Shown in pieces: positions 4,839 to 12,646 of a stretch of DNA of 13,908 nt. Every line of letters starts with the position of its first letter. Position 1 is the stretch's first letter. The stretch lies in the IMG/VR virus record IMGVR_UViG_3300031999_000011; one strand, written 5' to 3'. The notes beneath the pieces are model-generated. The model was not told where the DNA came from, ran no database searches, and saw only the letters and a list, made by a program, of their open reading frames with translations. The DNA comes from a virus. Lineage: Duplodnaviria > Heunggongvirae > Uroviricota > Caudoviricetes. The position numbers and the translations under genes were made by a program.

Positions 4839-5285
4839 ATGAGATTATTAGAATTATTATGTGAAAAGATTATTAATTCAGAACTTTTTGAAAATGCATT
4901 TAAAAGACAAGAAGTTGAGAGTAGAATTACTGATCTATCTCACCCAATAATTGAGCATTTAATTAAAATATTAAAATGGAAAGATGATCGTAATTATCAA
5001 AAACATATTCATGACATCAATGGTTGTATGTATAAGATTCAATCATTTAAATTAAAAAGGAACACAAAACCATCTCAACAAGATTATTATCAATGGATGG
5101 TTGTTGATGTATTACAAGATGAACTTAATGTTGAGCTCTGGATAAGAGGACTACATAGATATAATCATTTATCGGCTTTACAGTCTGATGAAGAAGTGTT
5201 TAATATCATTAAATCTATTTTGTATAAAGTTAGTTTTGATTTGCTTTTAATTAAATTTCGTAATATTGAAGATTATATGAAATAA
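4839..5285 (+). CDS. hypothetical protein, tandem paralog B
   Basis: 148 aa, 501-bp offset duplicate of 4338-4784. Confidence 0.85.
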   Translation: MRLLELLCEKIINSELFENAFKRQEVESRITDLSHPIIEHLIKILKWKDDRNYQKHIHDINGCMYKIQSFKLKRNTKPSQQDYYQWMVVDVLQDELNVELWIRGLHRYNHLSALQSDEEVFNIIKSILYKVSFDLLLIKFRNIEDYMK

Positions 5286-5288
5286 AAG

Positions 5289-5317
5289 TTGCATTGATTT
5301 GCAAAAGTTGTTATAAT
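5289..5317 (+). promoter_or_regulatory. sigma70-type promoter of the tRNA cluster
   Basis: TTGCAT-N17-TATAAT, 30 nt before the first tRNA. Confidence 0.85.
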
Positions 5318-5347
5318 AGATACATAAATTAGAGAGTTAAATAATAT

Positions 5348-5477
5348 GGAGTGGTAGACCGCTATGGAGACGGGAGGGACTGTGTTGGTCACAGGTGTAA
5401 ATCCAGTTCGATTCTGGAGACCAAAAGAAAATCCCTTGCCTTAGGCTCGCCAGGATCATAACCTGGACGCTCCACCA
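5348..5477 (+). tRNA. tRNA-Tyr(GTA)-like gene with a 45-nt insert in the anticodon loop
   Basis: Acceptor GGAGTGG/ACGCTCC+A+CCA, anticodon stem AGGGA/TCCCT, variable arm GCC-TTA-GGC, T stem CCAGG/CCTGG with atypical loop ATCATAA. Removing 5384-5428 gives CT-GTA-AA. Confidence 0.7.
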
Positions 5478-5483
5478 AACAAC

Positions 5484-5521
5484 GACGCCTTGGTACTGGC
5501 GTCTATATAAATAGGTACCAA
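5484..5521 (+). ncRNA. H-type pseudoknot between tRNA genes
   Basis: S1 GACGCC/GGCGTC, S2 TTGGTAC/GTACCAA, connecting loop TATATAAATA. Confidence 0.65.
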
Positions 5522-5529
5522 CGATTTTT

Positions 5530-5604
5530 AGGTTAGTGTTCTAATGGTACGATGTTGGTCTCCAAAACCATGCGATAGGGATTCAAATTCTCTCTAACCT
5601 GCCA
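5530..5604 (+). tRNA. trnW: tRNA-Trp(CCA)
   Basis: AGGTTAG/CTAACCT+G+CCA; anticodon loop CT-CCA-AA; T loop TTCAAAT; weak D arm. Confidence 0.88.
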
Positions 5605-5616
5605 AAATATAAAAAT

Positions 5617-5693
5617 GCGAGTGTAGTTTAACAGGAAGAACATCAGGTTAACCACCTGAAGGCGCTGAGTCAGGGTTCAGCCATTTCGCTCCA
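5617..5693 (+). tRNA. aberrant tRNA: Gly-like body with AAC anticodon and abnormal T loop
   Basis: GCGAGTG..CGC+T+CCA; TCAGG-TT-AAC-CA-CCTGA; T arm GCTGA-GTCAGGGT-TCAGC lacks TTC. Confidence 0.6.
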
Positions 5694-5698
5694 ATTTT

Positions 5699-5766
5699 GT
5701 GGTGATAGCTCAATGGGGGAGTTTTCTATGCGTAGAAGGTCGTCGGTTCGATTCCGATTCACTACA
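5699..5766 (+). pseudogene. tRNA-like gene with the anticodon loop shrunk to 4 nt, no encoded CCA
   Basis: GTGGTGA/TCACTAC, D stem GCTC/GAGT, TTCTA-TGCG-TAGAA, T arm GTCGG-TTCGATT-CCGAT. Confidence 0.65.
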
Positions 5767-5777
5767 AATTAATTTAT

Positions 5778-6380: not shown

Positions 6381-6475
6381 GAAAACCTTGTTGCGTAGAT
6401 ATCGAGCTACTTATAACTGCTAATTGGATGACCTTCGGGTCAGTATTCTCGTGTCGTTCTTATCTCAAGGTTTTC
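6381..6475 (+). ncRNA. UUGCGUA/UACUU scaffold element, copy 2
   Basis: P1 GAAAACCTTG/CAAGGTTTTC; P2 GATATCGAG/CTCGTGTC; CTACTT; cargo CT-GCT-AA plus UUCG hairpin; linker GTTCTTATCT. Confidence 0.85.
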
Positions 6476-6493
6476 ATTTTAATTTTTAAGATT

Positions 6494-6934
6494 ATGTTAA
6501 TTAAACAAATAAAAGCTGATATTACATTAGCAAGAAAAGAACACGACAAGTTTAAAGTAGCCCTATTAACTACCTTACTTTCAGATATTCAAATGATTGG
6601 TAAGAACGCGTTACGTGAATCTACTGATTCTGAAGCAACAGGAATTGTTAAAAGATTCATTAAAGGAATTGACGATACTATTGCGTTGTTGAATATTTCA
6701 ACCGAACTTGAAGTAATATCTAATAAATTAAGTCAAGAAAAAGAAATTTTGAGTAAATATTTACCAACTCAATTAGATAATGAAGAGTTATATATTGTAA
6801 TAAATAATGCTATTAATAGTGGCGTTTGTAATACATTGCCATTAATAATGAAATTTTTAAAAGATATGTATCCCGGTCAGTATGACGGTGCAATGGCAAG
6901 TAAAATTGCAAAAGAATTGTTGTTAGTAGCATGA
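6494..6934 (+). CDS. yqeY: GatB/YqeY domain protein
   Basis: Start 6494 (the upstream ATG lies inside RNA copy 2); patterns IKADITLARKEHDK, EKEILSKYLPTQLDNEEL and GQYDGAMASKIAK are typical of YqeY. Confidence 0.88.
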   Translation: MLIKQIKADITLARKEHDKFKVALLTTLLSDIQMIGKNALRESTDSEATGIVKRFIKGIDDTIALLNISTELEVISNKLSQEKEILSKYLPTQLDNEELYIVINNAINSGVCNTLPLIMKFLKDMYPGQYDGAMASKIAKELLLVA

Positions 6935-7268: not shown

Positions 7269-7288
7269 ATAAGCAAAGAAATTATAAT
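7260..7288 (+). promoter_or_regulatory. sigma70-type promoter directly before RNA copy 3
   Basis: TTGCAA-N17-TATAAT; copy 3 starts at 7302. Confidence 0.8.
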
Positions 7289-7301
7289 ATATTATAATTT
7301 A

Positions 7302-7460
7302 TTGATAGTTACGTTGCGTAGAGAACAGATACTTCATACCGAAAGCAGATTGTCAGGGGTTCGATTCCCTTCTACCTTCCCTTACAAGAAGGTAGTAGCT
7401 CAGTTGGTAGAGCATCCGCCATAAAAAAGACTGTTTTCGTTTTTAACTCGTAGCTATCAA
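7302..7460 (+). ncRNA. UUGCGUA/UACUU scaffold element, copy 3, carrying a circularly permuted tRNA body
   Basis: P1 TTGATAGTTACG/CGTAGCTATCAA; P2 GAGAACAG/CTGTTTTC; ATACTT; tRNA 3' half (7345-7379) precedes 5' half (7389-7419); linker GTTTTTAACT. Confidence 0.85.
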
Positions 7461-7485
7461 CAAATTATAAAATAAAAAATAAAAG

Positions 7486-7514
7486 TTGCAAAGTTTTAAA
7501 AAAGCATTTATAAT
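7486..7514 (+). promoter_or_regulatory. sigma70-type promoter upstream of RNA copies 4-6
   Basis: TTGCAA-N17-TATAAT with an A-tract upstream; no ORF follows for about 1 kb. Confidence 0.85.
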
Positions 7515-7634
7515 ATGTTTAAGTTTAAAGAATTCAAGACTACTACTCCTTGAATCGGTTAGTTATATGATGTTGGGTTATATAACTAACCACCTCTTGA
7601 TACACTATTTTACATAGTAGGTAAGGGTTGATAT

Positions 7635-7733
7635 ATTAAATTGTTAACATTTCTGTTGCGTTTGTGTCTGTTACTTCTATTGGCTGAAACAACACAGATA
7701 CAGTTTTTAACTCAGAAGTGTTAACAATTTAAT
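7635..7733 (+). ncRNA. scaffold element, copy 4 (core variant UUGCGUU)
   Basis: 21-bp P1; P2 TGTGTCTG/CAGATACA; TTACTT; cargo CT-GAA-AC; linker GTTTTTAACT. Confidence 0.85.
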
Positions 7734-7757
7734 TTATTATAAATAAAAAGAATAAAT

Positions 7758-7865
7758 TAAGTTATATTGTTGATATCTCTGTTGCGTAGAGTGCCCGTTA
7801 CTTCAATGCTATGAAAAATATACGGTAGCTCGATTTTTCCTCAGAGATATCAATAATATAACTTA
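7758..7865 (+). ncRNA. scaffold element, copy 5
   Basis: 24-bp P1; P2 GAGTGCCCG/CGGTAGCTC; TTACTT; cargo CT-ATG-AA; linker GATTTTTCCT. Confidence 0.85.
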
Positions 7866-7978
7866 TATTAATAATACATATGTTGCGTAGAGATCCGTTA
7901 CTTCAAAACATCTGACTTAAAATCTGACACTAATAGTCGGTTTTCATTTTTTTCTCATATGTATTATTAATATAAGTT
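7860..7978 (+). ncRNA. scaffold element, copy 6
   Basis: 23-bp P1; P2 GAGATCCG/CGGTTTTC; TTACTT; cargo TCTGA-CT-TAA-AA-TCTGA; linker ATTTTTTTCT. Confidence 0.85.
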
Positions 7979-7989
7979 TTGAAAGATTT

Positions 7990-8284
7990 TAGTCATCCCC
8001 TTGGCTGATCCGACCTAGTATATGTTTTATGCATTACGTTTGCTAGGTCACCCTATTTAACGAACATAGATACTCTTTATCGGGTATTATGTAACCGGAG
8101 AAACACTATTAGTTTCTCTCGATCTGCTGTATGATAAATCTCCCTTTAGCATACGGCAGATCAATTTAACACTTACTCCATATCTGTATCCGCTTATGGC
8201 GTTGTGTAACGGAAAGGCTATAACAGCTTTCCAGATCTGCTGTATAGTCATGTTTTATTCATTTTTGGATTATACAGCAGGTCA
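7990..8284 (+). repeat. three tandem double-hairpin units (about 110-nt period)
   Basis: Main stems GACCTAGTA/TGCTAGGTC (8012-8049), GATCTGCTGTATG/CATACGGCAGATC (8121-8162), GATCTGCTGTATA/TATACAGCAGGTC (8234-8283), each preceded by a short hairpin. Confidence 0.7.
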
Positions 8285-8321
8285 CTTTTATGATATAATC
8301 CTTAGTCAAAGTGATATTATT

Positions 8322-8383
8322 AAGCCCTAATTTAAAGTTATATATTATAACTACCACGTTGTGGAGTAATTAGGGTTTTTTTT
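8322..8383 (+). terminator. branched hairpin plus T-tract, probable intrinsic terminator of the ncRNA block
   Basis: AAGCCCTAATT/AATTAGGGTTT enclosing two small hairpins; the 3' strand runs into a T8 tract. Confidence 0.6.
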
Positions 8384-8474
8384 CATAATGGTATAATTAT
8401 GTTGTTGAATAATGTTTAACAACATAATTACGTTTGTAAAAATGCATATATACATAAAGGTATAAAAGTTTATT

Positions 8475-9030: not shown

Positions 9031-9498
9031 ATGGCTAATGGTGAACCAAAACAAGTTATTGTGATAAGAAATGACCTCAATATGAGGCGTGGAAAACAAA
9101 TAGCTCAGGGTGCTCACGCATCATTAAAAGCGATTTTAAATCTTGGACAAATGTTTCGTGATTATAGCGATATTAATGGTAACTTGATTGATATTCATTA
9201 TAATATTACTTTATTTAAAGAACGAAAGCAATGGAGTGGTGAACCCGATATAAATCATCAAGCAGTAATTGAATGGTTAGAAGGTCGATTTACTAAAATT
9301 TGTGTTCAAGTTAGTTCAGAAGATGAATTATTAAATATTTATAATAATGCAGTTGATGCAGGTATTAAATGTAGAGCACTCATTGAAGATGCCGGTTTAA
9401 CTGAATTTGGTGGTGTTAAAACATTAACTTGTTGTGCTATTGGACCTGCGTATCCAGAAGATGTAGATAAGATAACAAGCCATTTAAAGCTTTTATGA
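9031..9498 (+). CDS. pth2: peptidyl-tRNA hydrolase type 2 (Pth2)
   Basis: Motifs KQVIVIRNDLNMRRGKQIAQGAHAS, KICVQV, DAGLTEF, TCCAIGP, DKITSHLKLL. Confidence 0.95.
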   Translation: MANGEPKQVIVIRNDLNMRRGKQIAQGAHASLKAILNLGQMFRDYSDINGNLIDIHYNITLFKERKQWSGEPDINHQAVIEWLEGRFTKICVQVSSEDELLNIYNNAVDAGIKCRALIEDAGLTEFGGVKTLTCCAIGPAYPEDVDKITSHLKLL

Positions 9499-10129: not shown

Positions 10130-10885
10130 ATGGATTTTCTAGATAGAATACCTTATACTTATTTAGTTAAATGTATACCAACTAATCAGTGTTATTACGG
10201 TAGTAGAACTGCTAAAGGTTGTGATCCGAGTGAATTATGGATTAGGTATTTTACATCATCAAAGGTGATACAACGATTAATTGTTGAGTATGGTGTAGAA
10301 TCATTTCAATATTCAATTAGGAAAATATTTAAATCTAAATTATTAGCTGTTAAATGGGAAATGACGGTATTGCGTAGATTAAAAACTGCTCAATCTGATA
10401 AATGGATTAACCTTCATAATGGAGGTAATAAATTTATACATATATTACACAGTCAAAAAACCCGAGATAAAATATCTAGAATAGTTAAAAATAGGTCACG
10501 TGATATAGTTAATAAAACAGCTAATACGTTAAAGAGAAAACATGCAAGTGGTGAGTTAGTATCAGTGTTTAAAACTAACAACCCTCAACACACAATAAGT
10601 GGTAAGCAAAAACAGAAAGCAGTATTTAATAAAATTAAACATCAACAAGGTATTAAAAATTCACAGTTTGGTACAATGTGGATTAACAATGGTGTAAATA
10701 ATCAAAAAAGACAAAAATGTGAATGTATTCCAGCTGGATGGAATCAAGGTAGAATATTATCTCGAAATACACATAAGTGGATAAATGATGGTATTAAAAG
10801 TACAAAGTTATTAATATTTAACCCAATACCTGATGGTTGGCAATTAGGTAGGGTAAATAAAACCAAGTCTGGACCGGTCGGCTAA
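10130..10885 (+). CDS. GIY-YIG (Seg-like) free-standing homing endonuclease
   Basis: N-terminal PYTYL..YYGSR variant of the GIY-YIG motif, conserved E and N, basic linker, two C-terminal WIN(N/D)G...IP.GW..GR repeats; sits among tRNAs like T4 segB. Confidence 0.85.
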   Translation: MDFLDRIPYTYLVKCIPTNQCYYGSRTAKGCDPSELWIRYFTSSKVIQRLIVEYGVESFQYSIRKIFKSKLLAVKWEMTVLRRLKTAQSDKWINLHNGGNKFIHILHSQKTRDKISRIVKNRSRDIVNKTANTLKRKHASGELVSVFKTNNPQHTISGKQKQKAVFNKIKHQQGIKNSQFGTMWINNGVNNQKRQKCECIPAGWNQGRILSRNTHKWINDGIKSTKLLIFNPIPDGWQLGRVNKTKSGPVG

Positions 10886-10946: not shown

Positions 10947-11028
10947 ATAAACTTGCAAGTAGCTGCTATGAGCTTCACGTGTGCTCTGCCCATAGAAAAG
11001 CAACACCGTGACCAATTTTAAATATTAT

Positions 11029-11126
11029 GGCTACCAGGTTCAGGCCTGATCCTATCCGGGTACCCCTAAGTACACGGGCGACAAGGACGGATTGGTGCTA
11101 GGGTTCGAATCCCTAGCTAGTCGCCG
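11029..11126 (+). pseudogene. long aberrant tRNA-like gene with CTA in a 6-nt loop
   Basis: GGCTACC/GCTAGTC+G+CCG; canonical T arm TAGGG-TTCGAAT-CCCTA; GTAC-CCCTAA-GTAC. Confidence 0.55.
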
Positions 11127-11517: not shown

Positions 11518-11642
11518 ACCGGAGTGATGGGGAATCGGTATACCCTGGCGACGAATTCATAGTGAGGGAGCAGTCATTGGACTTTCAAAGTAACCTCTTT
11601 CGTAAATTGCTGCTTGTGTGGGTTCGAGGCCCGTCTTTGGTA
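11518..11642 (+). tRNA. tRNA-like gene with about 48 extra nt in the anticodon loop (identity unresolved)
   Basis: ACCGGAG/CTTTGGT+A, D arm GGG-GAATCGGTATA-CCC, anticodon stem GGCGA/TTGCT enclosing 55 nt, T arm GTGGG-TTCGAGG-CCCGT; no encoded CCA. Confidence 0.6.
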
Positions 11643-11662
11643 CTCTAAATTAAAGAATACAT

Positions 11663-12066: not shown

Positions 12067-12185
12067 GGGGATGTGGTGAAATTTGGTATATGCAGCGGAC
12101 TTTTTCAAGGGCTTGTAGTAATACGAGTCTTTCTAAAAATCCGCCGGCTTCGGTCATGCCGGTTCGAGTCCGGCCTTCCCTACCA
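12067..12185 (+). tRNA. tRNA-Leu(TAA)-like gene with a 33-nt insert at anticodon position 34/35
   Basis: GGGGATG/CTTCCCT+A+CCA, Leu-type D loop, GCGGA/TCCGC stem, UUCG variable arm, canonical T arm; removing 12103-12135 gives CT-TAA-AA. Confidence 0.8.
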
Positions 12186-12561: not shown

Positions 12562-12646
12562 GCCTTTGTGATGGAATGCATACATGCTTGGCTAAGAACC
12601 AAGTGCCTTTAGTGGATTGTGGGTTCGAGTCCCATCAAAGGTACCA
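12562..12646 (+). tRNA. trnL: tRNA-Leu(AAG)
   Basis: GCCTTTG/CAAAGGT+A+CCA; CTTGG-CT-AAG-AA-CCAAG; long variable arm; canonical T loop. Confidence 0.9.

Follow-up and report, generated by a model that had tools for sequence, protein, structure and literature searches.

The question raised by this locus is how a phage tRNA-Tyr gene is to be read when its anticodon is divided in the DNA: as a gene with an intron that proteins remove from the transcript, as a gene recently put out of action, or as the source of an RNA that works with the insert still in place. The window, by which is meant the whole 13,908-nt stretch of DNA analysed here (Caudoviricetes, IMG/VR record IMGVR_UViG_3300031999_000011), carries at 5348-5477 a class II tRNA-Tyr(GTA) gene in which 45 nt (5384-5428) separate anticodon bases 35 and 36. 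Coordinates of the features discussed are collected in Table 1.

Table 1. Features of the split tRNA-Tyr gene, its insert and associated elements (positions in the window)
Feature	Position	Strand	Composition	Basis
Promoter-like element	5289-5317	+	TTGCAT-17 nt-TATAAT; about 30 nt upstream of tRNA-Tyr	Read from sequence
tRNA-Tyr(GTA) 5' exon	5348-5383	+	Acceptor 5' strand, D arm, anticodon stem 5' strand, C32 U33 G34 U35	ARAGORN after insert removal; alignment with 13 uninterrupted homologues; pair covariation
Candidate intron, 45 nt, at 35/36	5384-5428	+		Single 45-column alignment gap; missing in 13/13 homologues
Inner acceptor-like 5' strand	5384-5390	+	G5384 opposite A5425 (G.A); U5385-C5390 pair with 5419-5424	MFE folds; motif scan
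Unpaired linker, 11 nt	5391-5401	+	ACAGGTGTAAA	Folds
Inner T arm	5402-5418	+	5-bp stem TCCAG/CTGGA, canonical loop TTCGATT (G53-C61, T54 T55 C56 G57 A58)	
Inner acceptor-like 3' strand and tail	5419-5428	+	GACCAA, A5425 facing G5384, tail A-G-A (5426-5428); no CCA	
tRNA-Tyr 3' exon	5429-5477	+	A36 A37 A38, anticodon stem 3' strand, long variable arm, T arm, acceptor 3' strand	
tRNA-Leu (probably UAA) with 33-nt insert (12103-12135) at 34/35	12067-12185	+		ARAGORN intron mode at default threshold; Rfam tRNA 30.3 bits; alignment with Leu tRNAs

The intact sequence 5348-5477 was called neither by ARAGORN at default settings nor by the Rfam tRNA model, and a permissive Rfam scan of 5280-5530 gave zero matches at E up to 10, RF00005 included. 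The intron mode of ARAGORN, proposed as a check in the preliminary description of this DNA, did not call the tRNA-Tyr gene either; with lowered thresholds it returned a 101-nt "tRNA-Pro(TGG)" with several mismatches and a permuted tmRNA, both of which were rejected as artefacts, and on other loci its "introns" were mostly spurious. Following in silico deletion of 5384-5428, ARAGORN at default settings called an 85-nt class II tRNA-Tyr(GTA) with the 7-nt loop CTGTAAA, and it is only with these bases removed that the features of the class (7-nt loop with GUA, long variable arm, A73) are present together. That removal of exactly this segment yields a normal loop and a default call favours an intron.

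The boundaries of the insert were fixed by comparison with uninterrupted genes. A pattern on the unusual T arm of the gene was run against IMG/VR and JGI metagenomes and retrieved 13 distinct uninterrupted homologues (L010, L016, L022, L032, L035, L038, L040, L042, L046, L050, L051, L053 and L058), most of them in dense phage-style tRNA arrays and the nearest being L046. MAFFT alignment with these opened one 45-column gap, which falls precisely at the CTGT/AAAT boundary and parts U35 from A36, and the fixing of both junctions by 13 sequences is a further point in favour of an intron. Together with the ARAGORN call after deletion, the alignment upholds the earlier identification of the gene as a tRNA-Tyr and the placing of the insert between the GT and the A of its anticodon. 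The 5' part of the gene finishes GGGA-CTGT (5383), and the 3' part opens AAATCCC (5429) and closes ACCA (5477), with the CCA encoded, A73, and a T loop, ATCATAA, that is unusual but family-wide. The predicted spliced junction is GGGACUGU-AAAUCCC (also GGGACUGU-AAAUCCCUU), giving the loop CUGUAAA.

Across the 14 sequences of the family, 96.4% of the cells in the cloverleaf are paired, as against at most 46% in slid controls; 8 pairs are changed on both sides, and the observed covariation score was reached in 0 of 500 shuffles. The exons of the window retain the family pairs, the sole unpaired position being C15.A24 in the D stem, which is common to the L010 group, and this intactness also favours an intron. 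The family is atypical in having A54...T58 rather than T54...A58 in the T loop, a constant G7.A66, and four bases, not two, before the D stem. It is because of these traits that Rfam misses even uninterrupted members: those tested fall below the Rfam tRNA gathering score, whereas seven uninterrupted members are assigned to Tyr(GTA) by ARAGORN.

The stretch from the promoter-like element to tRNA-Trp is identical in four assemblies, namely the window, L002 and L003 (JGI, other samples) and L061 (ENA), and the neighbouring protein is present in 15 contigs. In L061, identity drops to about 80% further downstream of tRNA-Tyr, and the identity of all four copies, including one with so diverged a downstream flank, was taken to favour an intron. 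Being identical, the copies are uninformative on covariation within the insert, and no similar DNA was found among 50,697 deposited phage records. The insert was seen only in one near-clonal lineage, a fact counted against an intron, since a single lineage offers neither covariation within the insert nor proof of long-term retention.

In the MFE fold of the insert, TTGGTC (5385-5390) pairs with GACCAA (5419-5424) and the helix is stacked unbroken on the T arm TCCAG-TTCGATT-CTGGA (5402-5418); the structure is unchanged whether the insert is folded alone, within the anticodon arm, or in the whole gene. In the resulting minihelix a G.A first pair is followed by Watson-Crick pairs numbering 5 + 6; its T loop is canonical, and it lacks a 3' CCA. 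Counted in tRNA style, as a 7+5 stack, G5384 is inner +1, A5426 is the discriminator and G5427-A5428 are two extra bases, and the insert starts exactly at inner +1 and stops after inner position 75. A T loop of the form TTCRA on a 5-bp stem that is continued directly by at least 6 bp arose in 5 of 3,000,000 shuffles of the insert, a shape that looks designed rather than like junk and so favours an intron; these counts and the MFE folds bear out the preliminary description of the insert as the top half of a tRNA. Even with 3 mismatches allowed, the window contains no second match to the 17-nt inner T arm (chance expectation 0.01). By folding energy alone the insert does not stand out (z = -1.6, with equally good folds in 14 of 200 shuffles), and this is what could be said for a chance resemblance or an assembly artefact. 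Such an origin is refuted by the identity of four independent assemblies, by the shuffle counts for the motif and by the exact 45-nt gap relative to 13 homologues, and we give it practically no weight.

The linker together with the following TCC (5391-5404) duplicates TGTAAATCC, the 9 nt running across the spliced loop junction (5381-5383 + 5429-5434); a shared 9-mer or longer between insert and junction was obtained in about 0.15% of 200,000 shuffles. The copy could be left over from an inner anticodon arm, reflect how the insert came into being, or act as a mimic. Inspection of the sequence at the junctions revealed no target-site duplication or direct repeat flanking the insert, and hence no mark of transposition. 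Its exact pattern of T arm plus acceptor had 0 matches in IMG/VR, blastn-short of the insert against all fetched loci found generic T-loop words only, and a search for related loci with YqeY found none. An exon-gap-exon pattern gave a single match, in L001, which was set aside as chance and unrelated. As a separate observation, TGGAGACCAA (5415-5424) is the reverse complement of 10 nt of the tRNA-Trp anticodon stem-loop (5555-5564), the CCA anticodon included; this complementarity was judged to be chance (E about 11).

The insert was compared with the established kinds of tRNA intron. Group I introns of bacterial tRNA genes, found in cyanobacterial tRNA-Leu(UAA) at 34/35 and in tRNA-fMet, are longer than 200 nt. 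The present insert resembles them in interrupting the anticodon of a bacterial-type tRNA after a U, and the companion insert in tRNA-Leu (Table 1) occupies the classic site of the cyanobacterial intron; in contrast to them, it is 45 nt long and has neither a P1-P9 core nor a terminal G. The earlier judgement that it is too short for a group I or II intron holds, and neither such an intron nor a self-cleaving ribozyme gave an Rfam match at E up to 10 or in an E-value scan of the whole window. Archaeal and eukaryal bulge-helix-bulge (BHB) introns, which are handled by EndA/TSEN and by RtcB or Trl1, are like the insert in being short anticodon-loop interruptions with presumed protein removal and resealing by a ligase. 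They differ in that tRNA-Tyr contains no BHB: in the strict form 1 of 4 central pairs is present and 0 of 432 relaxed configurations pass, in agreement with the preliminary description, which had seen no clear one. For tRNA-Leu (12067-12185) the figure is likewise 0 of 432. They differ further in site, which here is 35/36 and not 37/38, and in that the promoter here is of bacterial type; we know of no EndA in bacteria.

A closer parallel is found in the Lak megaphages, in whose tRNAs, Tyr(GTA) included, "enigmatic introns" were reported with no mechanism offered (Devoto et al. 2019, Nat Microbiol, PMC6784885); the Thr intron, it was suggested there, "may encode a tRNA". A literature search found no later paper explaining phage tRNA introns of this type. 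The Lak introns of the Tyr, Phe, Thr and Gly tRNAs follow one plan, with a small 5' hairpin, an A/T-rich linker and an inner tRNA-like module, the T arm (xxGG-TTCGAAT-CCxx) and acceptor stem of which end 1-3 nt before the 3' junction, and the introns end in CA or CTA (PMC6784885 Table S6). In the window's insert, 3-4 nt lie between the end of the inner stem and the 3' junction. Both are interruptions of the anticodon loop of phage tRNAs, including Tyr(GTA), that belong to no Rfam class and have intron-less variants; in both, removal restores a normal loop and a module of T arm plus acceptor abuts the 3' junction, and the ending of all four Lak introns in such a module favours an intron here. 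The differences are that the Lak introns are 79-114 nt long with a fuller inner tRNA and lie at or beside 36/37-37/38, whereas the window's insert is a bare 45-nt top half, about half that size, placed at 35/36 and beginning at inner +1, without the 5' hairpin module and the A/T-rich linker. The Lak phages are moreover gut megaphages and the phage of the window is an environmental T4-like phage, with no sequence similarity between the two sets of introns. The tRNA-Tyr insert is an unusually small instance of these published, mechanistically unexplained phage tRNA introns, with its excision remaining a candidate process.

The tRNA-Tyr gene is not the only split tRNA of the island, and the presence of a second favours an intron. 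The tRNA-Leu gene is class II, with A73 and a Leu-like D arm, and its insert folds into a hairpin of 11 perfect base pairs under a GNRA-type loop, GUAA (fold z = -6.5); with the flanking runs of U and A, the whole anticodon arm forms a rod of roughly 20 bp. The CTT before and the AAAA after the insert would probably give Leu(UAA), the anticodon of the uninterrupted gene in L004, the closest relative. As a plain hairpin, the Leu insert is not tRNA-shaped and would not be recognised by RNase P, so that a single route based on RNase P cannot serve both genes or be the island's whole story.

Several other unusual tRNA-like sequences were recorded in the island. A possible third split tRNA lies at 10950-11125; this class II candidate combines a weak acceptor with a canonical T arm (TAGGG-TTCGAAT-CCCTA), contains an 80-nt insert, would read as an amber suppressor (anticodon CTA) and was called by ARAGORN only at a lowered threshold. 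Two odd tRNA-like genes are found at 5617-5690 (weak, 31 bits) and 5698-5767 (6-nt anticodon loop with a 2-base "anticodon"), a 71-nt tRNA-like piece with just 27 nt between acceptor strand and T arm is found at 11573-11643, and a tRNA-Leu at 12562-12646 has the anticodon AAG, whose A34 is uncommon in bacterial-type decoding. A match to YrlA (RF02553, Y RNA-like) at 7322-7440 stayed under the gathering score of 69, with 37.5 bits (E 2.8e-5), and falls within a 1.2-kb stretch (7269-8474) without ORFs of at least 50 aa. Between tRNA-Ala and tRNA-Met, a 251-aa homing-endonuclease-like ORF (10130-10885; phrog_314, E 5.6e-16) overlaps with its end the start of tRNA-Met (10871).

The tRNA-Tyr is the first gene behind the element TTGCAT-17-TATAAT, and the same element stands at the syntenic place in L004. 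It was omitted by a consensus promoter scan because the -35 hexamer matches at only 3 of 6 positions. The neighbouring protein in L004 is 68% identical to that of the window, and the homology between the two loci reaches base 5350 of the window and then ends; there follow in L004 a different, uninterrupted tRNA-Tyr(GTA) at 746-832 and a 293-aa minus-strand ORF (phrog_23051, function unknown, no Pfam), and past the ORF lies a decayed remnant of a tRNA-Tyr of the window's type, ...ATCGTTACCTGGACGCACCACCA. The segment 731-1700 of L004 looks like a cassette replacement by a homing-type element. From the two arrangements it follows that in both lineages the operon still opens with a tRNA-Tyr, and that the locus turns over. 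The position of the gene behind an element conserved in L004, which retains a tRNA-Tyr(GTA) there, favours an intron, as does the result that no other tRNA-Tyr was called in the window or in the 26 kb downstream of it.

Genes for tRNA upkeep are present in this phage, and were also taken to favour an intron: a YqeY-like gene (6428-6934), a PTH2 gene (9031-9498) and, 3.3 kb past the end of the window, a CCA-adding enzyme (tRNA nucleotidyltransferase; PF01743/PF12627, phrog_2244; L062 9668-10837). A search for an RNA ligase, which the preliminary description had also proposed, found none: between about -9 and +26 kb relative to the window, Pfam detected no RNA ligase, RtcB or Pnkp, and this counts against an intron. 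Two further genes were noted outside the window. A SIR2-family gene (L062 7858-8571) lies 3-4 kb past its end, downstream of the tRNA island, and about 9-10 kb upstream (contig of ERZ27247761, gene list only) there is a 344-aa gene with a type I-F Cas7 domain (PF09615 Cas_Csy3), beside which stand a 181-aa neighbour and then 1.9 kb without called genes. This locus is possibly a miniature CRISPR-Cas system, array included, that the phage carries.

If the RNA were never repaired, a small palindromic, tRNA-derived DNA insertion would have inactivated the tRNA-Tyr recently, and the gene would be a young pseudogene, bound for decay or for replacement. We regard this as a serious possibility, although an unlikely one. 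The restriction of the insert to one near-identical lineage would fit such an event, and so would the turnover seen in L004, where the old tRNA-Tyr survives as a 3' remnant and has been replaced by another tRNA-Tyr and the 293-aa ORF. The island holds further defective or decayed tRNA-like pieces (e.g. 11573-11643 and 5698-5767), which count equally against an intron, and splicing machinery was not found by Pfam in the region from about -9 to +26 kb. A dead gene would, however, leave much to be explained. The exons are free of decay; the insert is a precise tRNA top half whose removal restores a 7-nt loop, which is not random damage; the design recurs in the Lak phages; inserts splitting the anticodon occur in two or three tRNAs of one island; and no other tRNA-Tyr was found in about 40 kb.

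The transcript might alternatively be functional as it stands, a 130-nt tRNA-Tyr body without a readable anticodon that would serve as a decoy or sponge for tRNA-Tyr nucleases or tRNA-binding proteins, with the linker displaying a second UGUAAAUCC. The 9-nt repeat of the anticodon-loop junction (p about 0.0015) does lie in a single-stranded stretch, and Y-RNA-like genes may occur in the island (the YrlA match above). There is also a context in defence. Retron-Eco7/Septu PtuAB is directed at tRNA-Tyr, and tRNA-Tyr genes carried by phages counteract it (PMC11555353; bioRxiv 10.1101/2023.03.15.532788; PMC13096335); tRNA-Tyr is a known target of phage defence and the phage genes are counter-defence loci (PMC11555353, PMC13096335). 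These reports agree with the preliminary description, which had named tRNA-Tyr as the target of the retron Eco7 PtuAB effector. This system gives a reason for phages to keep tRNA-Tyr genes, but nothing links the insert to it. Septu is reported to cleave the variable loop and not the anticodon (PMC13096335), and that loop is equally exposed on an ordinary tRNA-Tyr. We know of no nuclease that binds such a form, a decoy needs no insert whose removal gives an exact 7-nt loop, and the Phe, Thr and Gly tRNAs of Lak share the architecture, which points to a general property rather than to a decoy specific for Tyr. A role for the unspliced RNA seems to us improbable, and of the two readings that the preliminary description had left side by side, the indirect evidence leans to an intron over an unspliced mimic.

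The reading we favour takes the 45 nt for a tRNA-shaped mini-intron, removed by proteins and not by self-splicing, in a phage tRNA-Tyr(GUA) gene that is functional; from the sequence we would put this reading at a little under an even chance. Probably the insert is a small selfish element, tolerated by the phage thanks to its removal at the level of RNA. RNase P cuts minihelices by measuring a 12-bp stack of acceptor and T stem, and the position of the 5' junction exactly at +1 of the 7+5 stack, the expected RNase P site, favours this reading. We infer every RNA-level step of the route that follows; what the sequences show is the gene with its exact boundaries and intact exons, how the insert is shaped, and that homologues do without it. 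The operon would be transcribed from the promoter-like element (5289-5317), and the insert would fold into the acceptor/T-arm minihelix. Bacterial RNase P would then cut between U5383 and G5384, leaving exon 1 with a 3'-OH, and a second endonuclease, of the RNase Z/BN type or encoded by the phage, would release exon 2 between A5428 and A5429. The tRNA body would hold the two halves, and an RNA ligase, compare T4 Rnl1, would seal them to give the loop CUGUAAA. Two features of the substrate, the G.A mismatch at the first inner pair and the lack of a 3' CCA to aid RNase P, were counted against an intron. Since the 3' junction falls after inner position 75, and neither at N73 (canonical RNase Z) nor at a CCA, one ruler cannot explain both cuts, a further point against an intron. 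To our knowledge, protein-only splicing of tRNA has no precedent in bacteria, which also tells against this reading.

Each half of the proposed route has relatives among known processes. Among tRNA-like signals processed by RNase P and RNase Z, namely minihelix model substrates, the MALAT1 mascRNA and mitochondrial tRNA punctuation, the likeness is an acceptor/T-arm stack within a longer RNA that could direct RNase P to the 5' edge of the stack, and in the insert this edge is exactly the 5' junction; those signals, however, release flanking RNAs without religation, whereas here the first pair is G.A, CCA is absent, and the 3' junction lies 2 nt past the discriminator. Rejoining has its likeness in the repair of anticodon-nuclease damage by T4 (cutting by PrrC, healing by Pnkp, sealing by Rnl1), in which a phage ligase closes an anticodon-loop break held by the tRNA body. 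The T4 pathway differs in mending damage to host tRNA-Lys and in removing no insert, and its ligase gene has no counterpart seen here within -9/+26 kb. A more far-reaching reading, to which we give well under an even chance, is that a third route of tRNA splicing, neither self-splicing nor BHB, could operate in bacteria infected by large phages: a tRNA-shaped intron would recruit the enzymes that trim 5' and 3' ends, and a ligase would rejoin the exons. Under this scheme, the 45-nt insert would be a near-minimal form of such an intron.

Phage tRNA introns have been "enigmatic", and without a mechanism, since 2019, and the tRNA-Tyr insert offers a compact case, 45 nt long and with base-exact boundaries. 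The 130-nt transcript is a clean substrate for asking whether bacteria splice tRNAs with end-trimming enzymes. Should it not be spliced, the locus would be an example of how counter-defence tRNA-Tyr loci of phages get disrupted and replaced. If it is spliced, bacteria would have a protein-only route of tRNA splicing, and phage tRNAs of this kind would be systematically missed by tRNA finders.
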